A stretch of DNA of 64,000 bases from a phage. Positions within the stretch are counted from its first letter, which is position 1, and each line of letters begins with the position of its first letter. The position numbers and the translations under genes are program-made. Positions 6,632 to 63,612 of the stretch are shown piece after piece. The stretch lies in assembly GCA_020241865.1 (NCBI GenBank), contig GCA_020241865.1_4709.1, one strand, 5' to 3'. The notes beneath the pieces were generated by a model. The model searched no databases and was not told where the DNA came from. It worked only from the letters and a program-made list of their open reading frames with translations.

Positions 6632-9625
6632 ATGAGCGTAACCAACAAAGATCTTGCTGAACAGCTCAATCGCTATATGCTTTCACCTATTGAAATGCAG
6701 GCTATTGCAAGCGATATGATCCGTTTGGCCTCTGATGGCGAGTTAACCCTGGTTGACCCCAGCTGTCCGTTTGTTTATCTGCTGGAGGTTGCAACGGCAA
6801 CGGCTGCGAACCAGAACGCGCGGGATGAGTCCCGTGTTCGCGAACTGTATCCGAAGCTTGCAACCAACTGGAGCCAGCTCTATCGTTGGATGTATGACGA
6901 GTCGTACGTCGGACGTTTCGCAATGCCGGGTAAAACGGAAATCATTTATTCGTTAGGGTATCAGGAAATCCTCGATCGCGCTGTAGAGATTCCCAACACC
7001 ATCGCCTCCGATGATTTAAGCCGTTCTTACAGCCGTAAGTTAGTGATACCACGTACGACAGCGTTTACGGTAGCCGGAATGGATTTCGGGTTACATTATC
7101 CCATCGAAATCCAAGTACAAGCGCACGACCAGATCCGCGTCGTTTATAACACCGATAACATCAGCCCATTGCAAACCTTGGAGAGTAACCAAGTTGAGTA
7201 CGGGGTTGTTCGTGTAAAAGCGGGTAAAGTGTTGGTGATGCGTATCCCGCTGTTCCAGTTTAAAACACTGGTAAAAGATGTGCCGTTTAACAGCGTTCAC
7301 GGGATGAACAGCAGTATTACCTTCGAAGATCAGTTTTACCATTGTCGTGCGTACATGTCGTCAGATAACGATACCTGGACGGAGATAGCGACAACGCACA
7401 GTCAACAGATCTACGATCCGTTAACACCAACCATCGCGTTACAAGTAGAAGGGAACAAACTTAACTGGCGTGTTCCTGAAATTTATTTGTCTCAAGGTAC
7501 GATGGATAAAAGCACCATTCGACTTGAGGTGTTGACGACGAAAGGGAAAATCAGCGTCGACCCGTCTGATTACGACGTGACCGATTGGAAAGATAACTAC
7601 ATCGATCTGTCGCCAAAAGCCGAACAGAAATACAGTGCGCCGCTAAGTGCATTCAACATTAAAGGGATTTATAGCGAAGGGGCGTTGTCGGGTGGGCGAT
7701 CCGCGTTAACGTTCGAGGAACAACGTGAACGCGTTATGGCTGGCGTGAACAAAACCAAGGTGCCGATCACGGGAACGCAGGTAGAGCTGGTGCTTCAAGA
7801 TGCGGGCTACGGGATGGTGACCACCATCGACAACGTAACCAATCGTTCGTTCCTGGCAACCCGAGATTTACCGCAATTGAGCGACAGCGTGCCGCAAGCC
7901 GGTTCGTTGATGGGGTCTTTCTATACGTCAGCTGCAGCATTGGTGAAAAGTAAGTTTGTCGCCGATAACGGCGATCGTATTACGATTAAACCTGACTGCC
8001 TGTATCGCGACAGTAACGGAAGTATCACGCTGTTGTCGGACGATGAAATTGACCGTATTAATGCGGGCAACTCCGATGCGAAGTTGAATGCGGTAAACAA
8101 CGCCATGTTGTTTTACAGTCCGTTTCATTACGTATTAGATGCGACAAGCGATTTCGACATCCACGCTTATTACCTGGATGCCCCTAAGATCGGCACGCAA
8201 GCATTCCTCGACGCGAACGAGACAATCCCGTTAACCGCTATGGTGACCGGATACCGTCTGGATCGTATCGCTGAAGGATATCGTCTAAGCCTCATTGTAG
8301 AAGGTAACGACGCATGGAAGGCGCTCGACGATAAAAACGTGCATGTGCAGCTAGGATTCAATCCGCGGGGTGAGGGCGATTATGCGACGATGTTGGCATC
8401 GCCTACAACCGATGAACAAGGTCGTCGTTTGTTCACCTTCGATATCACCACGAACTATGATTTTACACGAATCCTGGCTGATGATTCCACGGCGTATGAA
8501 CCGTATATCGCATTGACCTCTTTCTCGATGTATGAATCGACACCGCGGGCTTACTGGGCATCACTGCAGCAGTATTTGGAAATCTTCCATGTGGTGACGG
8601 ATTATGCGCCGGAAGATGTCGACGGTATTTTACACAGTGCTTCCGATAATTACCTGGTTAAGAAACTCACGCTTCAAAATGGGTATTGTTTCTACCGTGA
8701 ACGTCTCACCGCAACCTTTGGTTATGATCTGGATGGTCTTTGGATGCGTTCTCGTACGGTGGCCTCGGAGATCACGTATAAACGTTACACCGAGAACATT
8801 CCATGGGTGTATGATGAAGATATTCCAGCGACGGATGAGACCGGTTCTGTTATCATTGAGCAAGGCGATGATGGTACGTTGTCGGTTAAATATCTGCATC
8901 GTAAAGGAGATCCGAAATTAAACAGTGATGGGAGCCAAGCCTATCGTTACCTGAAAGGCGACATCATGAAAGATAATTACGGTAATCCGATCCCCGTCGA
9001 TGAACGTGAGGTTCTGCGTAACCTGGACATGTTCTTTATTGATGCATCGTATCTGTTAGCGAACGATACAGACGTGATTGAGTATCGTAATGCGATTCCT
9101 ACGCAGCTTATCGAATGGATCCAGAACGATATCGACACGTTCATGAATTTCTGTTATGAAGAAACAGAGATTTCACTGTATCCTAAACAATCGCTGGGGT
9201 ATGTGGATGTGATTGTGGAAAACGGATTGGAAACGACGCTTCCTGCTGCCCTATCGTTCAACGTAACACTGTACTTACCAGCTAAGCAATACGCTGACCT
9301 GGATTTACGTCAAGTCCTTCAAGCGATGGTGTCGAAAGTCATCAATGAATGCTTGACATCCCGTACAGTAGCTAAAGCAGAAATGATCGCGATGATTCGT
9401 GAGGAAGGAGGTGACGACATCCTGAACGTTGAAATCGATGATTTTGGACCAGGTAAGAACCTCAGTGTTTATACCGCGAAGAACGACGGTGTTCGTTGTG
9501 CGGTGAAGAAAGAGCTTTATGTGAAAGCGGATGGTATCTTGTCCGTACGTGAAGCGATCGATGTAAGTTTTGTGAAACATGCACAAAGCAACAGTTCAGC
9601 GCTAGCACAAGGCCTTCGTGTCTAA
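6632..9625 (+). CDS. large hypothetical protein (997 aa)
   Basis: long uninterrupted ORF immediately after 5423..6628; followed by convergent GC hairpin. Confidence 0.8.
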   Translation: MSVTNKDLAEQLNRYMLSPIEMQAIASDMIRLASDGELTLVDPSCPFVYLLEVATATAANQNARDESRVRELYPKLATNWSQLYRWMYDESYVGRFAMPGKTEIIYSLGYQEILDRAVEIPNTIASDDLSRSYSRKLVIPRTTAFTVAGMDFGLHYPIEIQVQAHDQIRVVYNTDNISPLQTLESNQVEYGVVRVKAGKVLVMRIPLFQFKTLVKDVPFNSVHGMNSSITFEDQFYHCRAYMSSDNDTWTEIATTHSQQIYDPLTPTIALQVEGNKLNWRVPEIYLSQGTMDKSTIRLEVLTTKGKISVDPSDYDVTDWKDNYIDLSPKAEQKYSAPLSAFNIKGIYSEGALSGGRSALTFEEQRERVMAGVNKTKVPITGTQVELVLQDAGYGMVTTIDNVTNRSFLATRDLPQLSDSVPQAGSLMGSFYTSAAALVKSKFVADNGDRITIKPDCLYRDSNGSITLLSDDEIDRINAGNSDAKLNAVNNAMLFYSPFHYVLDATSDFDIHAYYLDAPKIGTQAFLDANETIPLTAMVTGYRLDRIAEGYRLSLIVEGNDAWKALDDKNVHVQLGFNPRGEGDYATMLASPTTDEQGRRLFTFDITTNYDFTRILADDSTAYEPYIALTSFSMYESTPRAYWASLQQYLEIFHVVTDYAPEDVDGILHSASDNYLVKKLTLQNGYCFYRERLTATFGYDLDGLWMRSRTVASEITYKRYTENIPWVYDEDIPATDETGSVIIEQGDDGTLSVKYLHRKGDPKLNSDGSQAYRYLKGDIMKDNYGNPIPVDEREVLRNLDMFFIDASYLLANDTDVIEYRNAIPTQLIEWIQNDIDTFMNFCYEETEISLYPKQSLGYVDVIVENGLETTLPAALSFNVTLYLPAKQYADLDLRQVLQAMVSKVINECLTSRTVAKAEMIAMIREEGGDDILNVEIDDFGPGKNLSVYTAKNDGVRCAVKKELYVKADGILSVREAIDVSFVKHAQSNSSALAQGLRV

Positions 9626-18137: not shown

Positions 18138-19889
18138 ATGAGCGAACAAGAACGAAAACCTAAGAAGAAACTGCTCGGTATTCAATGTCGACACATCAGC
18201 TATAACGAAGCGAACGATGGCAGCAAGAACGACCTCATGATCGCAAAAGAGATCATGTTCTTCGATGATAATACGCAAGCGACGAACCTTCGCTTCTTCG
18301 AGAATTACAAACGTCCGTTTTGGGTGACGGTAGAGAGTAAACGTAAGAACAAATATAAAAAGGAAAGCGAGAAGCTCTCGCATGTGCGTCGCTACGATGT
18401 CCGCCAAAGCGAACTGGTTGAAAAGATCAGCTCGGTACTTTATAAAAGACGTGCTGACGATAACACCCGTTTACAGCAGCTTGCACGGAGTCCATACCTC
18501 TATGGAACGGACGTTAGCGCCAGCTGTTATTTAAAAACCCAGTACAACACAAAATGGCCGGAATACGTCGATAAATTACCCGCTTCCATTGCCTGTTTCG
18601 ATATCGAAACCGACGTTGTCCACGGACACGGTAAGATCGTTTGTATGTCTATTACAATGGGATACAATGCGATACTTTGCTATACCAAGGACTTCGTTGG
18701 TCATATTCCGAATGCCATTGAGAAAACCCATGAGAAGATTCGATATTACCTGGCCGAACGTCTGAATACCAAAGAAGATCCCCACGCATTCGAAAAATAT
18801 CAGTACGATGTTCGAATCGTAGAAAGCCCGGCACAAGCGGTCATCCAATGCATGCAGAAGGTTCACGAATGGCAGCCGGATTATCTCCTTGGCTGGAATA
18901 TCGCGTTCGATATTCCGCGCATGCTCCAGGCACTGAACGAGGAAGGGTATCGTCCCGAGGATGTTTTCTCCGATCCCCGTATACCACCTAAATATCGTAT
19001 TGCTCGCTGGGTACCACCGAAGACCGACAAGGTATCTGCTTCAGGTCGTAAAACCAACCTTACCCTTGAGCAAACCTGGCCGATGTTTTATACGATGGCT
19101 ACGTATCAGGTTATGGATGCGATGTGTGGCTATAAGTTCGTTCGTTTAGGAAGACCGGATGAAGGACGCTATTCACTCGATGCGGTGTTAGAGCGAAATA
19201 AATGCCATACGAAATTAAAAGCTATTCCTGGTACAGAGGGGTTCACGGAGCTTGCCTGGCACGAAGAGATGCAAACGAACCATCAAATCGACTACGGCGT
19301 ATATAACCTTTGGGATAACCAGGGTATTGAGGCGTTGGACCAGAAAACAAAAGACTATTCGATGACCATCCCTATCCGTTTAGCGGCGTCGGATTTGAAA
19401 GATTTCAGTTCTAACCCTAAACGTATCTGCGATAAACTTTTCTTCGTTTATCTTAACCGTGGGGAAGTCATGGGATGTACCGCTGACGACATGACCCAGG
19501 AAGAAGATAAGTGGGTTATCTCACGAGCTGGACATATCGTCACATTACCATGCGATCTCATGGCTGACAACGGCATTCATCTCTTCTGGGATATGCCGAA
19601 CCTGAGAAGTTATATCCGTCTATTCGTTGCAGACCTTGACATTAGCAGTTCATACCCGAATGGGCAGATCCTGTTGAATCTATCCAGAGCGTGTGTTTTT
19701 CGCGAGCTCTCACGCATTGAGGGCGTCTCTGACTATCAATTCAGGAAGTTAGGTATCAACTTTATTACCGGAGGTAAAACGAACGCTGTAGACTTCTGTA
19801 GAATCGTTTATAAAGCACCATCGATGTTTGAACTTTTAGAACATTTCGATGCAACGCGTCCAAAAGAGGAAGCGCGGACCATCGAATGA
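18138..19889 (+). CDS. DEDDy-type 3'-5' exonuclease domain protein, likely N-terminal part of a split family-B DNA polymerase
   Basis: Exo I (FDIETD), Exo II (GWNIAFD) and Exo III (YSLDAVLE) motifs in canonical order and spacing; motif-A-like DLDISSSYP near C-terminus; ORF ends before motifs B and C. Confidence 0.7.
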   Translation: MSEQERKPKKKLLGIQCRHISYNEANDGSKNDLMIAKEIMFFDDNTQATNLRFFENYKRPFWVTVESKRKNKYKKESEKLSHVRRYDVRQSELVEKISSVLYKRRADDNTRLQQLARSPYLYGTDVSASCYLKTQYNTKWPEYVDKLPASIACFDIETDVVHGHGKIVCMSITMGYNAILCYTKDFVGHIPNAIEKTHEKIRYYLAERLNTKEDPHAFEKYQYDVRIVESPAQAVIQCMQKVHEWQPDYLLGWNIAFDIPRMLQALNEEGYRPEDVFSDPRIPPKYRIARWVPPKTDKVSASGRKTNLTLEQTWPMFYTMATYQVMDAMCGYKFVRLGRPDEGRYSLDAVLERNKCHTKLKAIPGTEGFTELAWHEEMQTNHQIDYGVYNLWDNQGIEALDQKTKDYSMTIPIRLAASDLKDFSSNPKRICDKLFFVYLNRGEVMGCTADDMTQEEDKWVISRAGHIVTLPCDLMADNGIHLFWDMPNLRSYIRLFVADLDISSSYPNGQILLNLSRACVFRELSRIEGVSDYQFRKLGINFITGGKTNAVDFCRIVYKAPSMFELLEHFDATRPKEEARTIE

Positions 19890-19937
19890 TTCAAGTAGGT
19901 TGATCCTCGCTTAACAAAAAAGAAAACACATGCGAAG

Positions 19938-19969
19938 CCCCTCCCCCTGGCGGAAGCCGGAGGGAGGGG
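19938..19969. terminator. GC-rich hairpin between convergent genes (polymerase/exonuclease gene and small-gene array)
   Basis: CCCCTCCCCCTGGC-GGAA-GCCGGAGGGAGGGG, 14-bp stem with one mismatch. Confidence 0.6.
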
Positions 19970-19975
19970 TGAGGT

Positions 19976-20461
19976 TTATGCGCGTTCGTTACCAACCGTT
20001 ACTTTGTAGTCAGCGTCGGTTAAGAAAATAGACAGGAATCCATGTTCTTTGCAAATCTTACTAAGGATGTCAGCAATGATTTCGTTGATCATCGGCTTGT
20101 TTGCAAGGGCATAGATGTACCCGGGTGTAAAAGAAAGTGCGTGATTGATCATAGGCTCATGAGAAGCCAAGATAAGGATCACGTGATGCTTCCCATCGTC
20201 GGTAACGACCGCTTGCGTAGACACGAAGAAATCAGTGAAGCAGCAGCGATCACAGGCTTTAGGTATATACAAGTCACCCAGAGCTTCGTCACGTGCTTTT
20301 ACGTGTGTTTCAGGGGTGATGCTGCTAAGTTGATCTTCAGCGAGATCCAAGACATCCTCAATCGTTTTAAGAATAGCGTTGCGGAAATCCTCACGGTAGA
20401 ATGGGATGATATCACGATCGTTCATGTAATCGCCGGATTCGATAGTAAAGTTGATGTTCAT
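19976..20461 (-). CDS. small hypothetical protein (161 aa)
   Basis: ORF in small-gene array; good RBS. Confidence 0.65.
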   Translation of the reverse strand: MNINFTIESGDYMNDRDIIPFYREDFRNAILKTIEDVLDLAEDQLSSITPETHVKARDEALGDLYIPKACDRCCFTDFFVSTQAVVTDDGKHHVILILASHEPMINHALSFTPGYIYALANKPMINEIIADILSKICKEHGFLSIFLTDADYKVTVGNERA

Positions 20462-20531
20462 TGAATGCTCCTAGTGGTTATGTCGATTGATCGATGTATT
20501 GATTTATGTTTGAAGGTGTTGTTCACCTTCG

Positions 20532-20996
20532 TTAGATATCGTCATCCGTGGTGCCGTAGGACATATGCTGAATTAATTTTCTCGGCTCGATGAAAATACG
20601 ACATGTGATAAACACATCGGGATCGTATTGCTCCACGCAACGTCCGAAGGTTTGTTTTGCGGCTTGGCGCATCGATGTTATTTCCTGATCGTTCATCGCA
20701 TTATCGAATTCGATGTTGATCGCGATTTTATCGGGAAATAAATAGATAAAGTAATCGCCGCTGATACCACCATCATCAAAGTGACGTTCATTGTAGCACT
20801 GGACGAGCTTACCTTCACGTTCTTTCTGATACCACCCAAGGATACTATTAAGACCTCTGTCCACGCATTCGAATGCTTGAGTAATAACATCCTCAACGAC
20901 GGATGCAGGCGTGGGACCATTGAATAGACGATCTAAGCGCTTTTTCATCGATTTGGTTTTCTCGTTCATGATTTCTTTTCCTGTTATAATCGGCAT
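20532..20996 (-). CDS. small hypothetical protein (154 aa)
   Basis: ORF; ATG 20996; RBS lies inside upstream GC hairpin. Confidence 0.65.
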   Translation of the reverse strand: MPIITGKEIMNEKTKSMKKRLDRLFNGPTPASVVEDVITQAFECVDRGLNSILGWYQKEREGKLVQCYNERHFDDGGISGDYFIYLFPDKIAINIEFDNAMNDQEITSMRQAAKQTFGRCVEQYDPDVFITCRIFIEPRKLIQHMSYGTTDDDI

Positions 20997-21036
20997 ACAA
21001 CCCTTCCCCGGCCTGATGGCTAGGGAAGGGGCTATG
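20994..21036 (-). terminator. GC-rich palindromic hairpin (family member) whose arm contains the RBS of gene 20532..20996
   Basis: CATACAACCCTTCCCCGGCC-TGAT-GGCTAGGGAAGGGGCTATG. Confidence 0.5.
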
Positions 21037-21044
21037 CTACGTTG

Positions 21045-21443
21045 TTATGCTTCGCAATCAGCTGAAGGCGTCGCGCCTTTCTTACCAGCGATACGCCAAA
21101 TCCGACACGCTGGGTAATGGTTAACCTCTAGAGAGCAAGGAATGTTATATTTCTCTTCCAGCGCATAAAGACATTTCGTTAGCTGCTCCAGCGCGTTCTC
21201 GTCGTGTCGTAACGCGTGGTGGCCTAATCGATGTTGGTCGTTCTTTATATACGCCTCGAAGAGAACATGTTGGCGATGTACGCTGACGTTTACAGCCTCG
21301 AGTATAGCTTGGTCGAGCATACGACTAAAGCACATCAACGAGTCAGATACGTTTTCTCGCTTAACCAGATCGATCATGGCGGGAATATACGAATGGTCGA
21401 TGTTATCGATGACCGCTTTAGCGACGGAATCAGCAACGTTCAT
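21045..21443 (-). CDS. small hypothetical protein (132 aa), tandem paralog of 21481..21876
   Basis: shared blocks AKAVIDNIDH and EEKYNIPxSLEVN with neighbouring gene. Confidence 0.75.
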   Translation of the reverse strand: MNVADSVAKAVIDNIDHSYIPAMIDLVKRENVSDSLMCFSRMLDQAILEAVNVSVHRQHVLFEAYIKNDQHRLGHHALRHDENALEQLTKCLYALEEKYNIPCSLEVNHYPACRIWRIAGKKGATPSADCEA

Positions 21444-21480
21444 CTTTTTTAATCCCTAGTTTGTTATTGATCACGTATAT

Positions 21481-21876
21481 TTACTCTTTGACGTCAGTTG
21501 TCGTTTCGACATGCTTCTCACTACTGACGTACCAGAGCAGGTACGCTGGGAAAAGATTGACCTCTAAGCTAAATGGGATATTGTATTTCTCTTCCATTTT
21601 ACAGAGATGTTCTTTAAGTAAATTTCTCGCGTCTCTGTCACCACGAACAGAGTGCCAGTCTAGTTCTTTGTTCTCCTTTACCAGGACCTCTACGATGATA
21701 CGTTGCTCGTGAACCTCGGTTTTCACAGTGAAAAGTAAATCGCTGCTATCCAAACGGGTAAAACGAATGTATGAACCAGGTGTTTTTTCTTGTTTAATAA
21801 TATCGATCATGGTAGAAATGCGCGGATGATCGATGTTGTCGTTAACAGCTTTAACGATGGATTCTACAATGCTCAT
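21481..21876 (-). CDS. small hypothetical protein (131 aa), tandem paralog of 21045..21443
   Basis: shared blocks with neighbouring gene. Confidence 0.75.
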   Translation of the reverse strand: MSIVESIVKAVNDNIDHPRISTMIDIIKQEKTPGSYIRFTRLDSSDLLFTVKTEVHEQRIIVEVLVKENKELDWHSVRGDRDARNLLKEHLCKMEEKYNIPFSLEVNLFPAYLLWYVSSEKHVETTTDVKE

Positions 21877-21908
21877 TTTTTATCCTTAATGTTATCGATT
21901 TGGAAATA

Positions 21909-22676
21909 TTACTTATTTTTGCTTTCTTTATAGACAGTTGTTACCCACGATGGGAAAGCCGGATGGAAACAGAGCGTGAACGTAACTGTCGTATCGTATT
22001 TAAACGCACAGTTCACTAACCGGGTATCTAACGTTTTCCTTAATCCGTCATCATCGTTATCGATGATGGTCATATCTCTTAATATCCCAAGCACGTTAAC
22101 GCCATCGGGTGTCTGGGTTACGACAAGTCGTCGTAATGGCCCGCATGTATAGTCACGTACAAATCCTTTCTTCGGGTCCGATACCCTGTTTAACGCATCG
22201 TGATTTTTGATGAATTCATCGGCGATACAATAGGTTTGCTCCCTTGCTTTATCGGGATCGTATTCTGCTAATAGTTCCTTCGTGTCGAATGTTATCGCGT
22301 TATTAGCATTCGATTCAGAAGGGAAACATAAAACTAAACGAACAGGGTATTCATATTGATCTGTTCTCGTTTCGAAAGCATTAGCTAAACACGGCTTGTA
22401 TGCCTTTGCGTCGACATTGTCCAAACACGGATGCAATAATGCGTGAATAACGGCACCATCGTCAGTTAAACCGAATTCCAGAAATTGTGTTTCATCGACA
22501 TCCGTGACGGTTTTCTGAAGATACGCTTTACCGTTAACGATATCGGTATCCCACATATCGTCGTTTAACGATTCTTCAAACTTATCGAATATATGGTTTA
22601 CGAAATTGATGAGTTCATCAATACGACACTGTTGGTTGAATTCGATTAATCGTTGAACTTTATCTCTGATAGACAT
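21909..22676 (-). CDS. hypothetical protein (255 aa)
   Basis: ORF in small-gene array. Confidence 0.7.
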   Translation of the reverse strand: MSIRDKVQRLIEFNQQCRIDELINFVNHIFDKFEESLNDDMWDTDIVNGKAYLQKTVTDVDETQFLEFGLTDDGAVIHALLHPCLDNVDAKAYKPCLANAFETRTDQYEYPVRLVLCFPSESNANNAITFDTKELLAEYDPDKAREQTYCIADEFIKNHDALNRVSDPKKGFVRDYTCGPLRRLVVTQTPDGVNVLGILRDMTIIDNDDDGLRKTLDTRLVNCAFKYDTTVTFTLCFHPAFPSWVTTVYKESKNK

Positions 22677-22678
22677 GA

Positions 22679-23143
22679 TTACTCCTTAGTTCCTTCTTCG
22701 TTGGACGTATATTCCACATAGTGGAATTCACGGCCGTCGATAAACTTGAGTGCTACTGTAATAGGGAAATCACACGGCATAGCGGATTTCGTAAATGCGT
22801 TATCAGCAACATCAGATAACCGACGTATGGTATTCTCCCCTTTTGCTATGAATGGGAATTTAATGTTAATAAGGATACGGTGTTTGTAAATAGTAAAGAC
22901 GACAGTGCTGTCGAAATGTACCCCAGTTAAAGTCATTGTTGGGATACGTTTTACAACGGAGAAATGTGTCCCGTCAATATCGCTACTTCCCACTGACCAT
23001 TCATCGGAATTGCGTAGACTTTTCTTGAGGATATCAACGCTTTGCGTGACCACCTCAGCAACTTGTACGACGTACGTGTCTTTATGCATGTCGAAAAGTT
23101 CGTTGACGTTAGATTTGAATGAATAAACCGTTGCCATTATCAT
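22679..23143 (-). CDS. small hypothetical protein (154 aa)
   Basis: ORF; acidic C-terminus resembles neighbours. Confidence 0.65.
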   Translation of the reverse strand: MIMATVYSFKSNVNELFDMHKDTYVVQVAEVVTQSVDILKKSLRNSDEWSVGSSDIDGTHFSVVKRIPTMTLTGVHFDSTVVFTIYKHRILINIKFPFIAKGENTIRRLSDVADNAFTKSAMPCDFPITVALKFIDGREFHYVEYTSNEEGTKE

Positions 23144-23598
23144 ACCTCTTTTTTCATCTTCATCGGAACAGCGAGTGCTGCACTCGCTGTTCCATTATCC
23201 GGCTCATATTCCAATGTAACGAGATTGCAGCCGTCCGATAATTCATAATCGATCGCTAGGGGGAACGAGATACCGTGCGACTTTATGCATTTACCAAATG
23301 TCTCGTTGGCTGTATACATTAGAAGTTGCTTTGCGGCAAGCCCGTTTACGCTGAAAGGTAATTGTGCTGTCGCAGCGATACGATTATTGTAAACTCTGAT
23401 ATCGGTGATATCTACAATCGTAGCATTGCCGTGTTGTGTTGATGGAACGGATAGGTTGTAGAAGTAAGGTTCGGAGTCGGAATCGGGCTCGTTAAATAAT
23501 TCCCAGCACCCGTCCTCCTGCAATCTTACTTCGAGTATTTCAAAGCTTTTAATTATCGATTCTACCAGCTGCTCACCGTAAGAATCCCATGTCGTCAT
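23140..23598 (-). CDS. small hypothetical protein (152 aa)
   Basis: ORF; ATGA overlap with downstream gene. Confidence 0.65.
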   Translation of the reverse strand: MTTWDSYGEQLVESIIKSFEILEVRLQEDGCWELFNEPDSDSEPYFYNLSVPSTQHGNATIVDITDIRVYNNRIAATAQLPFSVNGLAAKQLLMYTANETFGKCIKSHGISFPLAIDYELSDGCNLVTLEYEPDNGTASAALAVPMKMKKEV

Positions 23599-23669
23599 TT
23601 TTTAACACCTTCGACACCTTTTAACCGATACGTGTCCCATCTAACAAGGGACACGATATCGTTGATTAA

Positions 23670-24164
23670 TTACTCTTCTGTGTTTTCATTGTCAGGATCG
23701 TAGTGGAATTCGAACAGCCCTGAACCGTCGTGTCCGTTGATTGTTAGTATAACGGGCATATCGAATCCTCGGACACGCGAATGAAAACATTGTGCTAATT
23801 TTAGTTTGGCGTATGCCGCTACTTCATTGACAGCAATACACGATTCACCTGTTATACTCAGTATAACGTCGATACTAACAATGTTGTCGTGCAACGCAAA
23901 ACGCCAGCGATCGATACGATTATTATCTTTATCGGTTGTCTCGTTTACGAGATAGACTTTATCGTCAACCGACAAAGCGGGACTCCAGCAACGATCGTTT
24001 ATTAAATTCGCCTGGAGTTTTAGTATCGTCTGATCGATAATATCCCAACACGTAACCAGCGTGGTGTCAGGCACTGAGTAGAGAAGGGCGTGCACTTTAT
24101 CCTTTATTTTAAGTGCTTCCGCAGGACGTCCGCAAATACCATGCATTTCGACTTTCTTATTCAT
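23670..24164 (-). CDS. small hypothetical protein (~164 aa)
   Basis: ORF 23670..24170 (GTG start in track); first ATG at 24164. Confidence 0.6.
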   Translation of the reverse strand: MNKKVEMHGICGRPAEALKIKDKVHALLYSVPDTTLVTCWDIIDQTILKLQANLINDRCWSPALSVDDKVYLVNETTDKDNNRIDRWRFALHDNIVSIDVILSITGESCIAVNEVAAYAKLKLAQCFHSRVRGFDMPVILTINGHDGSGLFEFHYDPDNENTEE

Positions 24165-24208
24165 ATTCACTTCTTTCTTAATCTAAATGTTAGTTGGGGG
24201 TGGGATGC

Positions 24209-24811
24209 TTACATGCTTTCTAGCATATTGACGATCATGGAACCCATACCGAAACTCGGTCTCTCACCGATATACTCAGCAAGCTGGCGATGGACGTCTT
24301 TTGGATTTCCTTCTTCACCGTCAGCATCGATGTAGACTGAAAAAGAAACCGAATCGGAATCCACGCTGATAACCAGACGACGTTCATTGCGTTCCTTGAG
24401 CGTGTCGACGATAGATGCTTTCAGTACCGGGATCGCATTCATCGCGTGCAAGATATCTCCATCGGGTTTCGGCAGATCGATCTTTTCTTTCAGGTCGATA
24501 TTGATGTTGGTTACAATTGGGTTGAGGTCGACCTTGACGTAATCGTTAGGGTACATGCGAATAATCGCACGATCGATATCTGAACCGTAAAAGTCAACAC
24601 GTGGCTTTAACACTTCTTTGTTTGGATCCATGTTTTCATCCATACCCGCCTGCAAGAAACGTTCTACGTTATCCAGTTCACGATAAACTAACGCTTCGAT
24701 TTCTTTCAGATAGTTGGCTGCGGTTTCATGTTCTTTACGCAGCTCGTCTTTAAGGAGCTGTACGGTGGTTTCACTGGAACGAATGCTGTTCGCGAATTGG
24801 GTAATTGACAT
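24209..24811 (-). CDS. hypothetical protein (~200 aa)
   Basis: ORF 24209..24841 (TTG in track); internal ATG 24811 with AAGGA RBS. Confidence 0.65.
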   Translation of the reverse strand: MSITQFANSIRSSETTVQLLKDELRKEHETAANYLKEIEALVYRELDNVERFLQAGMDENMDPNKEVLKPRVDFYGSDIDRAIIRMYPNDYVKVDLNPIVTNINIDLKEKIDLPKPDGDILHAMNAIPVLKASIVDTLKERNERRLVISVDSDSVSFSVYIDADGEEGNPKDVHRQLAEYIGERPSFGMGSMIVNMLESM

Positions 24812-24859
24812 ATCGAATTCCTTAAATTCTCTTGAGTTCAATTAATGATGAAAAGCTGT

Positions 24860-24887
24860 AAAAAAAAAAGGTGGGGCGAACCCCACC
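24860..24887 (-). terminator. rho-independent terminator (hairpin followed by U10 on minus strand)
   Basis: plus strand A10 then GGTGGGG-CGAA-CCCCACC; on minus strand stem-loop followed by T10. Confidence 0.65.
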
Positions 24888-24912
24888 AAAACGTCAGACA
24901 CACGCGGGAAAA

Positions 24913-25338
24913 TTAATTCAGTGATGCATATAAGGCATAACGACTGTAGATCTCAACCGCCGGTCCGTTATGCGTTAACAGACCGTCTCGGCTGTAATAC
25001 TGGAAAAATGAATAACGTTTGTCGAAGTGATAAACAAAAGCAATGTCTTTGCCGTCAAAACCTGTGATGCGTGGTCTGTTTTTATCTAGCAATGCTTTGA
25101 CTTTTAACAGTGTTGCCGCACGTGCTTTAACGTTAGGGATCAAGCCATCACAATCGATATAAACAGTGTAACCTGTTTCAGATGTTGCGACGGTCGTATT
25201 GCGATTGACGCGGAAGATTTTTGTTTCGTATGTACTATCTTCAAGAATTGGGTTTTGTTTTTCGTATTTTCGTTTACGCAGAAATTCTACAACGGTGATA
25301 TAGTTAGCGGTAATATGCCCGGTTATAGCTTGTAACAT
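24913..25338 (-). CDS. small hypothetical protein (141 aa) behind conserved promoter/leader cassette
   Basis: ORF flanked by conserved upstream cassette (25335-25444) and downstream hairpin plus T10 terminator. Confidence 0.7.
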   Translation of the reverse strand: MLQAITGHITANYITVVEFLRKRKYEKQNPILEDSTYETKIFRVNRNTTVATSETGYTVYIDCDGLIPNVKARAATLLKVKALLDKNRPRITGFDGKDIAFVYHFDKRYSFFQYYSRDGLLTHNGPAVEIYSRYALYASLN

Positions 25339-25444
25339 CTTGACATCCTTTTATATTGGATTGGTTGCAATTGTCTTAAATAGATGATAAGATATTTTGC
25401 TCTTATCACTAAGGTAATGTAGTCGCGAAATAAACTGCGTTAAC
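25335..25444 (-). promoter_or_regulatory. conserved promoter/leader/RBS cassette, copy A (upstream of 24913..25338)
   Basis: 29-nt identity (ACATCTTGACATCCTTTTATATTGGATTG) plus ~37-nt block at ~70% identity shared with 53506..53612; leader hairpin GATAAGA...TCTTATC between blocks. Confidence 0.55.
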
Positions 25445-25460
25445 ACGAAATAAAAAACAG

Positions 25461-25510
25461 CATAGAACCCTCCTCCCACATCCTTCAAGAGGACGGTGGG
25501 AAGAGGGAGA
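25461..25510 (-). terminator. GC-rich palindromic hairpin (family member)
   Basis: CATAGAACCCTCCTCCCAC...GTGGGAAGAGGGAGAG downstream of 25513..25914. Confidence 0.5.
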
Positions 25511-25512
25511 GA

Positions 25513-25914
25513 TTAAATGTCGTGGACGGCAATGCCGTTTAACCAGCAATACAGCTTAACGCGACAGGAATACCGCTTCGTTGCGGCAACCATTTCATCG
25601 CGTAAACGCTGGTATATTTCATCCTGGTGTTCACGATCAATGGGGTAATCAGCCCAACATTCGATCATGACGTCACCATTCGTCAGAATCGTCGTACGCA
25701 TCCTGTCCTGGATACGGCGGTCTTTCCCGGCATTAGGGAAATACATTCCTTCAGTACGAATAAGGTCGCCGCAAGGCATGACTAACCATTCGTTCGTTTT
25801 GCCGGTATTCTTATAATCCATTACAGCTTGCATTGCGGTGTCAACGCTAAAAGAAACATAATTCCAAACGGATGTCCAACGATAGATTGCGGGTTGTTCG
25901 AGTGTTTCGTTCAT
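25513..25914 (-). CDS. small hypothetical protein (133 aa)
   Basis: ORF with AGGA RBS; Trp-rich. Confidence 0.65.
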   Translation of the reverse strand: MNETLEQPAIYRWTSVWNYVSFSVDTAMQAVMDYKNTGKTNEWLVMPCGDLIRTEGMYFPNAGKDRRIQDRMRTTILTNGDVMIECWADYPIDREHQDEIYQRLRDEMVAATKRYSCRVKLYCWLNGIAVHDI

Positions 25915-25958: not shown

Positions 25959-25961
25959 CGG

Positions 25962-26006
25962 CATAAAGCCCTTCCCTGCCCTTATATGGGGCGGGAAGAG
26001 TTTATG
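25962..26006 (-). terminator. GC-rich palindromic hairpin (family member), imperfect
   Basis: CATAAAGCCCTTCCCTGCCC-TTATAT-GGGGCGGGAAGAGTTTATG. Confidence 0.45.
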
Positions 26007-26128: not shown

Positions 26129-26755
26129 TTATGCGAAGCGACGCATGTAACCTGCCAGATAGTTACGTGTATCGAAGTAAGCAATTTCAGGAATTGCGAT
26201 ATTAAGGTCGATAGCACGGATTTCAACCTGGCGACGGCTTTCATCATAGATCGCATCCATCAGACGCAGTACTGTCAGGAAAGCCATGCGGGTATGGTAG
26301 TCCAGCGGCATGTTATCGATGCCACGATACAGATAACGGTTTGCATTAAATGCTCCTTCGCTGTTATCTTTCCAGATCTTCAGAATATCAGCAAAGGCGG
26401 TGCGGAAAACCTCAGGATTATCCACATCCAGTAACGCACGGAAGGCAGACATTAAAGACCGCTGATGGCGGATCAACGACTGCGGTGTTTGCGGCATGGT
26501 CGGACCCATTTCTTCCGCATATTTCTGGAACGGGGCAACCAGGGTTGCGGCACGAGAAGCCACGATAGAAACAGCAGGCGATTCTTTCACCGCTGGTTTC
26601 GCAGGCTTTTCTTCAACAACGGTTTCCTTCTTCTCAACAGCGACCGTTTCCGGCTGTGCTACAACATCACCAACCGGAGCATCTGCAACGGTGGTTTCTA
26701 CCGCAGTAATCTCCTCGTCCATTTTTGCAGAACGTTGGTCTTTATTCTTGCTCAT
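26129..26755 (-). CDS. hypothetical protein (208 aa), acidic low-complexity N-terminus
   Basis: ORF; ATG with AAGGA RBS. Confidence 0.7.
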   Translation of the reverse strand: MSKNKDQRSAKMDEEITAVETTVADAPVGDVVAQPETVAVEKKETVVEEKPAKPAVKESPAVSIVASRAATLVAPFQKYAEEMGPTMPQTPQSLIRHQRSLMSAFRALLDVDNPEVFRTAFADILKIWKDNSEGAFNANRYLYRGIDNMPLDYHTRMAFLTVLRLMDAIYDESRRQVEIRAIDLNIAIPEIAYFDTRNYLAGYMRRFA

Positions 26756-31261: not shown

Positions 31262-31621
31262 TTGCTGTTAGCGCGTAAAGGCGATGGTGGCATGAAGCTG
31301 AACATCGAAATGGGTATTGCGTACGATACCATGTTTGGCTTGTACGATCGTGTTAACGACTGGACGCCGTTGAAATGGGTGGCTCAGCACCCCGCTGAAG
31401 ATCCCTGGGACAGATTGGGGATTAAACCCTTAATCGAAGATTATGTCCGATTCGGTATTAAAGAGTTCATGACGTTGGATGCGTTTTTACAAGCACCGTA
31501 TCCTTACGCGCAAATGGTACTCAAAATCGCACAAGACGAACTGCGGAAACGTAGTGCGGTACTGGACGACGATGAGGACAAGTTACGACGAGAAGAAGAA
31601 CGTTTACGAAACGGAAAATAA
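31262..31621 (+). CDS. ORF probably expressed as C-terminal extension of 29535..31199 rather than independently
   Basis: track start is TTG with no RBS; first ATG (31292) has poor RBS; frame is open upstream through the T8 run. Confidence 0.45.
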   Translation: MLLARKGDGGMKLNIEMGIAYDTMFGLYDRVNDWTPLKWVAQHPAEDPWDRLGIKPLIEDYVRFGIKEFMTLDAFLQAPYPYAQMVLKIAQDELRKRSAVLDDDEDKLRREEERLRNGK

Positions 31622-31622
31622 A

Positions 31623-32132
31623 ATGGCGAGATTTACCAGTTTGATTGGGTTGGATATTTGGGAAACACCGGCTGACGTTCGGGTTATTCCTGTTAACACC
31701 GTCGGTGTGATGGGACGTGGTCTTGCCAAACAGGCAGCCGATCGTGTACCCGGTCTTCTTGAAGCGTACCGTAAGCAATGTCAAGATGGGTTTAAGGTGG
31801 GCGAAGTCGTGTCGTATCAACACGGTGATAACGATCAACTCACCTACGTGTTGTTTCCATCAAAATCGGATTGGCGTGAAAGAACACGACGCGAGTATAT
31901 CGTTAACGGTTTACTGGCGTTAAAAGCATGGTTACTGGAGCTTCAGTTCGAAAGAGACGGCTTCTCATATCGGCGTCCGGCTGAACCGCTGATCGTTGCA
32001 ATTCCTCCGGTTGGTTCTGGTTGCGGTAATATCGGTTACGGACAATCCGAAACAATCCAGCCTCAGTGGGTACGCGCACAAATCAAACAGTATCTTGCCA
32101 CCGTACCGAACGTTCATTTCTACTTGTTCTAA
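31623..32132 (+). CDS. macro-domain protein (ADP-ribose binding/hydrolase-like)
   Basis: N-terminal VIPVNTVGVMGRGLAKQAADRVPG and C-terminal IVAIPPVGSGCGNIGYG blocks resemble macro-domain signatures (cf. YmdB); ATG 31623 (MARFTSL). Confidence 0.65.
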   Translation: MARFTSLIGLDIWETPADVRVIPVNTVGVMGRGLAKQAADRVPGLLEAYRKQCQDGFKVGEVVSYQHGDNDQLTYVLFPSKSDWRERTRREYIVNGLLALKAWLLELQFERDGFSYRRPAEPLIVAIPPVGSGCGNIGYGQSETIQPQWVRAQIKQYLATVPNVHFYLF

Positions 32133-50205: not shown

Positions 50206-50253
50206 GATGATTTCCTTCTTTATTAGGATGATTACGTTTAGTCAGTTTAACAG

Positions 50254-50288
50254 CATAAACCCTTCCCGCCTTACGCAGGAAGGGCATA
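50254..50288 (-). terminator. GC-rich palindromic hairpin (family member, reverse orientation, loop TTAC)
   Basis: CATAAACCCTTCCCGCC-TTAC-GCAGGAAGGGCATA. Confidence 0.5.
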
Positions 50289-53509: not shown

Positions 53510-53612
53510 CTTGACATCCTTTTATATTGGATTGATTGCTAATAGTTCAAGGTGAAGCTGATTACTGCATTGCTTCACCTAGGTAATATAGCCGTGAAAA
53601 TTAATGCATTAA
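53506..53612 (-). promoter_or_regulatory. conserved promoter/leader/RBS cassette, copy B (upstream of 53192..53509)
   Basis: same blocks as copy A; contains 12-bp palindrome TTAATGCATTAA, TATATT -10-like hexamer, leader hairpin AGGTGAAG...CTTCACCT. Confidence 0.55.
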
Positions 53613-57438: not shown

Positions 57439-57458
57439 TTTGTTTCCTTTTTTATCAG

Positions 57459-57486
57459 CATAAACCCTCCCGTGCCGGGAGGGTAC
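57459..57486 (-). terminator. GC-rich palindromic hairpin (family member)
   Basis: CATAAACCCTCCCG-TGC-CGGGAGGG, 8-bp stem. Confidence 0.5.
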
Positions 57487-63557: not shown

Positions 63558-63579
63558 AAAATTGTCAAAATGTACATCG

Positions 63580-63612
63580 GCATAACGCCCGTGCCCGCCC
63601 GTGATGGGAGGG
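63580..63612 (-). terminator. possible weak family member hairpin
   Basis: CATAACGCCCGTGCCCGCCC-GTGAT-GGGAGGG; imperfect. Confidence 0.3.

Follow-up and report, generated by a model that had tools for sequence, protein, structure and literature searches.

A plastic early gene island of Goslar-like jumbo phages built mostly from one ORFan superfamily

The gene block at positions 19976 to 25914 of the phage contig GCA_020241865.1_4709.1 (NCBI GenBank assembly GCA_020241865.1; the whole 64,000-nucleotide stretch analyzed is called the window here) is an island of early genes that is restricted to one lineage, dispensable, and highly plastic, and it consists mostly of one superfamily of ORFans with compact, apparently noncatalytic domains. 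Its eleven genes are numbered W1 to W11 from position 19976 upward, and W12 is the next gene (26129-26755). When the 5.9-kb region was compared with 50,697 phage records, the sole match was to Escherichia phage vB_EcoM_Goslar (91% identity over 62% of the region), a 237-kb nucleus-forming jumbo phage of the Chimalliviridae. Judged by sequence, the phage of the window is a close relative of this Escherichia coli phage, and all 12 proteins from W1 to W12 are identical to those encoded on L005, a 238-kb contig of the bacterial assembly GCA_020395325.1.

A preliminary description, made from the DNA alone, had depicted the region as eleven consecutive minus-strand genes for small acidic proteins without recognizable enzymatic motifs, evolving by duplication and divergence. 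All eleven open reading frames (ORFs) are present, encoding proteins of 131 to 255 amino acids (aa), none of which has a significant match in Pfam, PHROG, or NCBIfam. Ten of the proteins are acidic, with isoelectric points (pI) of 4.4 to 6.0, but W10 is basic (pI 9.4). Duplication and divergence are strongly supported by a seven-gene superfamily, by variable copy number and cassettes in 17 genomes, and by one chimera of two paralogs.

Paralogy and predicted fold of the island proteins

Seven contiguous genes, W2 to W8 (20532-24170), with eight or nine domains among them, are paralogs of one ORFan superfamily. The comparison of the proteins that the preliminary description had proposed yielded a family A, the pair W3 and W4 (family B), and then a link between the two families through profiles and structure. 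Family A comprises W2 (20532..20996), W5 (21909..22676; 255 aa), W6 (22679..23143; 154 aa), W7 (23140..23598; 152 aa, overlapping W6 by 4 nucleotides [nt]), and W8 (23670..24170), all on the minus strand. W5 to W8 are joined by BLASTP at E values of 1e-3 to 1e-6. W2 was retrieved at an E value of 1e-5 from among the 317 ORFs of the window by a profile built without it, from W5 to W8 and two Goslar proteins, and the same profile retrieved nothing outside the array among those ORFs. The five genes originally said to share an acidic C-terminal tail are exactly this family, as defined by BLASTP and hidden Markov model (HMM) searches, whereas the literal motif proposed for the tail, (F/L)E(Y/F)xxDxE, is exact in none of the five. 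What they share is the last beta-strand of the domain, x-E/S-Y-x-P/S/T-D/N, in which the Tyr is nearly invariant, followed by acidic residues. In W5 the motif (LAEYDPDKA, at about aa 139 to 147) is internal rather than C-terminal, because this protein bears an additional C-terminal module.

Family B consists of W3 (21045..21443, minus strand; 132 aa) and W4 (21481..21876, minus strand; 131 aa), correctly recognized at the outset as tandem paralogs (38.8% identity over 129 aa; E value, 1e-29). The two families belong to one superfamily because their profiles align in HHalign (74% probability; E value, 2.8e-5; 123 columns spanning both proteins; 27 sequences in the family B alignment), because the predicted models of W8 and W4 agree, and because the W4 model retrieves a family A protein, Goslar gp73, in a Foldseek search.

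An AlphaFold2 model of W8, computed from a 36-sequence family alignment, had a predicted local distance difference test score (pLDDT) of 82.4 and a predicted template modeling score (pTM) of 0.72; two N-terminal helices are followed by a four-strand meander, a short and a long helix, and a beta-hairpin. W4, modeled with family B sequences only in the alignment (pLDDT, 86; pTM, 0.79), repeats this order of elements but lacks one strand, so that the common pattern can be written H H E(3-4) H H E E. When the W4 model was searched against BFVD with Foldseek, gp73 was the only significant match (E value, 1e-6; probability, 1.0; template modeling score [TM], 0.58; 138 columns; 13% identity), and neither model had a confident match in BFVD to any known protein outside the superfamily. 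The models thus predict a compact fold, alpha-alpha, beta-meander, alpha-alpha, beta-hairpin, with a conserved hydrophobic core. The positions conserved across family A, invariant or nearly so, are occupied by Leu, Trp, Tyr, and Pro, apparently residues of the core, and by one Lys in the N-terminal helix. No conserved catalytic set of acidic residues and lysine was found in the family alignments, nor an acidic pair and Lys on the strands; because of this, the domains appear to be nonenzymatic, and their variable parts seem to lie mainly in helices and loops.

The N-terminal module of W5 (about aa 1 to 150) is a family A domain. Its extra C-terminal segment of about 105 aa gave 35 to 38% in HHalign, with a score of 28.8 versus a maximum of 16.3 for 42 control ORFs; a direct comparison of the N- and C-terminal parts was not significant, the observed score being reached by 177 of 1,000 shuffles. 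The segment may be a truncated second family A copy. A natural 143-aa form of W5 in the genome L017 contains the N-terminal domain alone, and W5 is therefore at least modular. W9, whose profile matches (HMM E values of 0.035 to 0.11) were among the two or three best subthreshold ones genome-wide and which reached just 5% in HHalign, would be at best a marginal relative. For W1, W10, and W11, HMM and HHalign comparisons gave no support for membership; HHalign between single orthologue groups was too shallow to connect these three or W9 with the superfamily.

Relatives of the superfamily were found neither in Pfam nor in PHROG or NCBIfam, where the best E values, 0.0025 to 0.16, were to unrelated families and did not reach the curated cutoffs, and sequence-profile searches of the PDB with families A and B gave no match. 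Among the known anti-defense families represented in the three libraries, no described inhibitor family is matched by an island protein.

Early expression, boundaries, and natural variation

The claim that this is an early locus can be examined with published Goslar transcripts, sequenced at 30 min from cells in which ChmA was knocked down, arresting infection at the early vesicle stage, and from controls (Supplementary Table 2 of bioRxiv 10.1101/2023.09.20.558163). The orthologues of W1, W2, W6, W8, W9, and W10 are gp070 to gp075, in that order, and W11 corresponds to gp076. In the knockdown, gp070 to gp075 had log2 fold changes (log2FC) of +1.0 to +1.3, like other early genes, while gp068, gp069, and gp076 to gp079 decreased by 3.5 to 6 log2 units, gp076 having values of -4.5 to -6.1 (bioRxiv 10.1101/2023.09.20.558163). 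The transcripts of the Goslar orthologues thereby support an early, nucleus-independent class for W1, W2, W6, W8, W9, and W10. Since gp070 to gp075 rise and gp076 falls, the early unit runs from W10 to W1 and excludes W11, which belongs to another expression class and for which the early assignment does not stand. W3, W4, W5, and W7 are assumed to be early because they lie on the same strand between early genes, with gaps of at most 37 nt. Peptides for all of gp070 to gp076 are listed in a mass spectrometry table for Goslar (bioRxiv 10.64898/2026.04.21.720040), and the proteins are therefore made. Other Goslar blocks with an early signature (log2FC of about +0.2 to +1.4), gp001-004, gp014-021, gp037-040, gp044-047, and gp094-105, are mostly single-strand runs of small hypothetical proteins, and none contains a member of the superfamily.

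The superfamily is restricted to this locus in the data searched. When 1.84 billion representative proteins were searched exhaustively with HMMER, only 15 superfamily clusters were found, and every member examined for its context was on a Goslar-like contig of about 236 to 260 kb, either in an assembly of E. coli, Salmonella, or Shigella or in a metagenome; a scan of IMG/VR found only 3 related loci. No member occurs outside the locus among the 981 ORFs of the Goslar genome and the window. The true number of clusters is probably larger than 15, because a 169-aa family A gene was missed by the exhaustive search. Goslar-like genomes, complete or nearly so, are frequent as contigs in isolate assemblies of E. 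coli, Salmonella, and Shigella and in metagenomes, and the exact W1 sequence was present in 117 index blocks, which suggests that these virulent jumbo phages are often carried in cultures.

The nearest cultured relatives outside the genus, Klebsiella phage Eowyn (with an RNA polymerase beta-like protein, RNAP-beta, 34% identical) and Seoulvirus SPLA5c, represent two other chimallivirus genera. Both lack the island; in each of them, the RNAP-beta gene is followed immediately by a small ORF and then the convergent DNA polymerase gene, with gaps of 42 to 52 nt. Because the island is absent from these phages and its flanking genes adjoin there, the W1-W11 block is, on the evidence of gene order, a Goslar-lineage-specific insertion into a conserved core block of an RNAP-beta-like gene, a capsid decorator gene, and the convergent DNA polymerase gene.

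A comparison of copy number across related phages, also proposed in the preliminary description, revealed about nine architectures of 7 to 12 genes among seventeen Goslar-like genomes. Most have the 11-gene form of the window. Goslar lacks W3, W4, W5, and W7 (W7 is missing from several other genomes as well), L002 lacks W4, L009 lacks W4, W9, and W10, and L019 lacks W5, while L017 combines the N-domain-only W5 and a divergent 148-aa family A gene with the absence of W2, W3, W4, and W7. In L013 and L015, W7 is missing and family A genes of 169 aa and 148 aa occupy the place of W1; L016 is the same except that W7 is present, giving 12 genes, and L014 is like L013 with the 148-aa gene intact and the 169-aa gene not intact. 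The W1-replacing genes lie at 7478-8447 in L013, L015, and L016 and at 8001-8447 only in L014, and the 148-aa gene is also filed as P0133. Since Goslar was isolated and propagated without W3, W4, W5, and W7, these four genes are not essential.

Divergence between alleles is concentrated in family A, between flanks that hardly differ at all. Deep alleles stand at 60 to 70% identity, and minimum amino acid identities are 55% for W2, 59% for W5, 62% for W6, and 72% for W8, with synonymous divergence (dS) of up to 1.0 to 1.1, versus at least 99.2% for the DNA polymerase (polB) and at least 97.5% for RNAP-beta. Mean ratios of nonsynonymous to synonymous divergence (dN/dS) are 0.24 to 0.37 in family A, W6 being among the most variable genes at 0.37; they are 0.08 to 0.14 for W1, W9 to W12, and other neighbors and 0.01 to 0.02 for the two polymerases. 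The family A genes are thus under purifying selection, though of a weaker or more heterogeneous kind. Much of the diversity represents old alleles shuffled in a mosaic, as in L003, where a W6 allele of 66% identity stands beside a W5 allele of 96%.

Exchange also occurs between paralogs. In P0145, a database protein from an 18.6-kb Logan/ENA contig, the N terminus of W8 (84 of 84 residues exact) is fused to the C terminus of W7 (77 of 83 residues) at a 13-nt stretch, AATAATCGTATCG, that is identical in the two genes (23140-24170 in the window). The joint falls at nonhomologous positions of the predicted fold, with the loss of one beta-strand, and the chimera directly records a recombination event between paralogs. 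Tandem duplication, deletion, paralog recombination, and the swapping of old, divergent alleles all reshape the island, while its flanks stay nearly identical.

Individual genes, putative signals, and neighbors

W1 (19976..20461, minus strand; 161 aa; pI 4.7) is 100% identical to gp070, an early gene with log2FC of +1.0 to +1.2. W2, W6, and W8 are 73%, 67%, and 79% identical to gp071, gp072, and gp073, respectively, and W3, W4, W5, and W7 have no counterpart in Goslar. W9 (24209..24841, minus strand) is conserved, with 95.5% identity to gp074. W10 (24913..25338, minus strand; 141 aa), the first gene of the early block and a singleton in sequence, is 99% identical to gp075, and W11 (25513..25914, minus strand; 133 aa), which lies within the lineage-specific insertion with its nucleus-dependent expression, is 98% identical to gp076; the W11 of L017 has 138 aa and 81% identity. 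The start of W2 is probably the ATG at 20969, giving 145 aa, because its orthologues are called at 145 to 150 aa; the upstream ATG at 20996 falls within a hairpin+TATGCCG element. Judged from orthologues, W8 and W9 likewise probably begin at ATG 24164 (164 aa) and ATG 24811 (200 aa).

That element belongs to a recurrent type, a C-rich/G-rich hairpin (-18 to -29 kcal/mol) followed immediately by (G/A)GGNTNTATGCYG. Against 1.07 expected, the (G/A)GGNTNTATGCYG pattern was matched 12 times, in every case on the minus strand; 7 of the 12 have strong hairpins (1362-1374, 20991-21003, 25458-25470, 25959-25971, 50251-50263, 57456-57468, and 63578-63590). The copy between W3 and W2 (20991..21030, minus strand; fold of -23.1 kcal/mol) consists of a hairpin and GGGTTGTATGCCG; the one upstream of W11 (25959..26000, minus strand; -20.3 kcal/mol) has GGGCTTTATGCCG. 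In the 174-nt spacer between W11 and W10, a hairpin, GGGTTCTATGCTG, and a T-run (25458..25505, minus strand; -29.1 kcal/mol) mark the point at which the nucleus-dependent W11 gives way to the early block. This spacer is about 640 to 680 nt long in L017 (12586-13224) and L019 (12580-13261). Downstream of W1, a GC-rich hairpin followed by a T-run, CCCCTCCCTCC...GGGGGAGGGG CTTCGCATGTGTTTTCTTTTTTG (19890..19975, minus strand), resembles the hairpin+TATGCYG elements and forms the distal end of the island, adjoining the convergent polB gene. Between W10 and W9 (24870..24887, minus strand), a hairpin of 7 pairs with T10 behind it resembles an intrinsic terminator and is annotated as a terminator in Goslar. 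The hairpin+TATG elements may be combined terminator and middle/late-promoter signals, TATG being the consensus of late promoters of the phiKZ nonvirion RNA polymerase (PMC4666361).

An early-promoter-like 17-mer, CTACATTACCTTAGTGA (CTAYATTACCTWRGTGA), is a candidate signal 68 nt upstream of the W10 start codon (25406..25422, minus strand). It contains a TATATTAC/ATTACC core, which we take to be that of phiKZ early and middle promoters. The 17-mer CTAYATTACCTWRGTGA has only one other copy (53575-53591, minus strand), and two matches were reached in 18 of 100 shuffles, which is not significant. A sigma-70 scan found fewer sites than in shuffled sequence, and an Rfam scan of the island gave no match.

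On one side of the island, the window carries an uninterrupted polB (18138-19889; 583 aa), a family B DNA polymerase that contains an exonuclease. In Goslar and several other genomes polB is split after residue 499 by an insert of about 1.76 kb (3899-5657 in L001; the corresponding site in the window is at about 19630-19653), that encodes a homing endonuclease of the HNH/NUMOD1 type and contains a group I intron (RF00028; 44.7 bits; E value, 1e-9; slightly under the gathering score). A presence/absence polymorphism thus directly adjoins the island. On the other side, just upstream, W12 (26129-26755, minus strand) is 95% identical to gp077 and matches phrog_18957 (E value, 8e-19); gp077 is a capsid decorator with 60 copies in the model of the Goslar virion (bioRxiv 10.64898/2026.04.21.720040). 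Farther away, at 31572-32132 on the plus strand, the window encodes an orthologue (97% identity) of the Goslar macro-domain protein gp083; a chimallivirus DarG2-like antitoxin has been described as a nucleus-localized anti-defense factor (PMC13309987).

Possible functions and comparison with known systems

Nucleus-forming phages are thought to escape DNA-targeting immunity by means of their compartments. To our knowledge, little is known about protection or host takeover before the nucleus exists, or about protection against defenses that do not target DNA. The early timing, the variability, and the lack of catalytic motifs point to early cytoplasmic binding proteins with a host-directed action, either anti-defense or takeover, and we consider it roughly an even call that this is what the island encodes. 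The Goslar orthologues of the genes from W10 to W1 are transcribed before the genome leaves the early infection (EPI) vesicle and without need of the phage nucleus. The island products would act by binding rather than by catalysis, in the cytoplasm, before or during the building of the nucleus. The targets, in the host or in competitors, would be variable, most likely components of host immunity or of host takeover that differ between E. coli, Salmonella, and Shigella strains, and different paralogs and alleles would cover different targets. A more specific version, which we offer as speculation and think rather improbable, is that a single small fold has multiplied into seven to nine copies that form a modular, swappable arsenal of early cytoplasmic inhibitors, possibly catalytically dead nuclease-like decoys, that protect the vulnerable pre-nuclear EPI-vesicle stage, with each paralog or allele neutralizing a different host immune protein and the composition of the island setting host range at the level of strains.

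Several points weigh against a host-directed function. The early class is drawn from Goslar orthologues, which W3, W4, W5, and W7 do not have, these genes being early by position, and hairpin+TATG elements inside the early block may add later transcription. Gene-wide dN/dS, at less than 1, does not show positive selection, and the high dS shows that much of the variation consists of old alleles exchanged by recombination, a pattern that relaxed constraint could also produce. The W1 orthologue gp070, moreover, is found in fair abundance in virion preparations, which would not be expected of an effector confined to the cytoplasm.

Competition between phages is one alternative, in which the island would exclude superinfecting phages or make co-infecting Goslar-like phages incompatible with one another, instead of acting on host immunity. 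Many distinct Goslar-like variants occur in the same enteric hosts, the deep, exchanged alleles would fit frequency-dependent selection between related phages, and the polymorphic polB intron with its homing endonuclease indicates that selfish or competitive elements are active nearby. This proximity is possibly coincidental, though, because the endonuclease lies in polB rather than in the island. None of the island proteins is similar to a known exclusion protein, and a reading of the sequences revealed no obvious membrane segment. On balance we judge such a role to be rather unlikely.

Much the same standing, fairly unlikely, is given to the idea that the proteins are accessory factors of the phage's own early compartments, serving in EPI-vesicle function, the transition from vesicle to nucleus, or as adaptors for import or mRNA handling, and co-evolving with phage partners. 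Their timing is that of the pre-nuclear stage, and chimalliviruses encode many lineage-specific ORFans in compartment biology. Against this, the core is nearly invariant (polB and RNAP-beta at the identities given above), while island genes fall to 55 to 72% identity, whole genes are dispensable in natural isolates, and other genera form the same compartments without the island.

A third alternative concerns the fold, namely that the domains are degenerate or atypical PD-(D/E)XK (restriction endonuclease-like) proteins that bind or cut nucleic acid. Both independent models gave the same weak Foldseek matches to herpesvirus UL24, YqaJ, and Cas4-like and RecB-type proteins (E values of 1e-3 to 1e-1; probability up to 0.96), and the order of elements includes an alpha-beta-beta-beta-alpha-beta core. 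The TM scores of these matches are just 0.25 to 0.34, too weak to call a relationship with UL24 or PD-(D/E)XK, and the catalytic D...(D/E)xK residues are not conserved. We consider this explanation unlikely.

The proteins, or at least W1, might instead be virion components or be injected with the DNA. Estimated copy numbers per virion are 110 to 260 for gp070, detected by liquid chromatography-mass spectrometry with 4 peptides and 37 spectra, 5 to 12 for gp074, 2.5 to 6 for gp071, and less than 1 for gp072, gp073, and gp075 (bioRxiv 10.64898/2026.04.21.720040). In the same preparation, however, PhuZ and chimallin, which are not virion proteins, are at levels similar to that of gp070 (bioRxiv 10.64898/2026.04.21.720040). 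The gp070 mRNA is early and nucleus independent, unlike those of true virion genes such as gp077, and the family A orthologues gp072 and gp073, at less than one copy, and gp071, at 2.5 to 6, are scarce. None of gp070 to gp076 appears among the rows of the composite virion model that were examined, and gp70 to gp74 go unmentioned in the main text of the paper. The combination of late, nucleus-dependent transcription and stoichiometric presence that defines structural virion proteins was thus found for none of gp070 to gp075, and gp070 is either a very abundant early protein that copurifies with virions or a packaged protein; we judge the virion explanation very unlikely.

That the genes are functionless, decaying ORFans kept by chance, as the missing homologs, natural dispensability, and elevated dN/dS might suggest, is extremely unlikely and largely refuted by dN/dS of 0.24 to 0.37, well below 1 over dS of up to about 1, by ORFs intact in 17 genomes, by confident and compact models, and by the detected peptides.

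With host-directed binding as the preferred reading, the island supplies candidates with natural variants that are expressed before the nucleus exists and that differ between nearly identical phages of E. coli, Salmonella, and Shigella assemblies. Should they prove to be anti-defense or host range determinants, the existing series of natural alleles would amount to an experiment already set up; should they not, what is gained is a clean annotation of a 6-kb ORFan block, with its transcription class, paralogy, boundaries, and corrected starts. In the literature searched, no paper discussing Goslar gp70 to gp74 was found, and neither the superfamily nor its confinement to one locus of a single genus nor its connection with the pre-nuclear chimallivirus stage appears to have been described there.

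In structure, the nearest comparisons are the PD-(D/E)XK fold of herpesvirus UL24, YqaJ, and Cas4, for which the Foldseek resemblance is weak but reproducible and the order of helices and strands compatible, and, in addition, the T3S4 / PscP substrate-specificity-switch domain (PDB 5cuk) and PA3611 (PDB 3npd). Compared with anti-defense islands of the anti-CRISPR and anti-restriction kinds, the block is similar in its small, mostly acidic, early proteins that lack a catalytic signature and in its fast turnover, cassette exchange, and allelic depth; it differs in having neither a match to a described anti-defense family in the libraries searched nor an Aca-type marker regulator.

Accessory blocks of small, early, variable ORFans are already familiar as a type of locus in virulent phages. 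Examples of such hyperplastic or accessory early regions are the variable regions of T4-like phages and, in phiKZ-like phages, operons of early ORFans that are transcribed by the virion RNA polymerase. Like these, the island is a run of small same-strand ORFans without enzymatic motifs, early, variable, dispensable, and set between core genes. Unlike them, it consists mostly of one paralog superfamily (seven genes and, in other genomes, up to two more at the position of W1), this superfamily is confined to a single locus of a single genus-level lineage, and the early stage concerned is the EPI-vesicle stage of the chimalliviruses.

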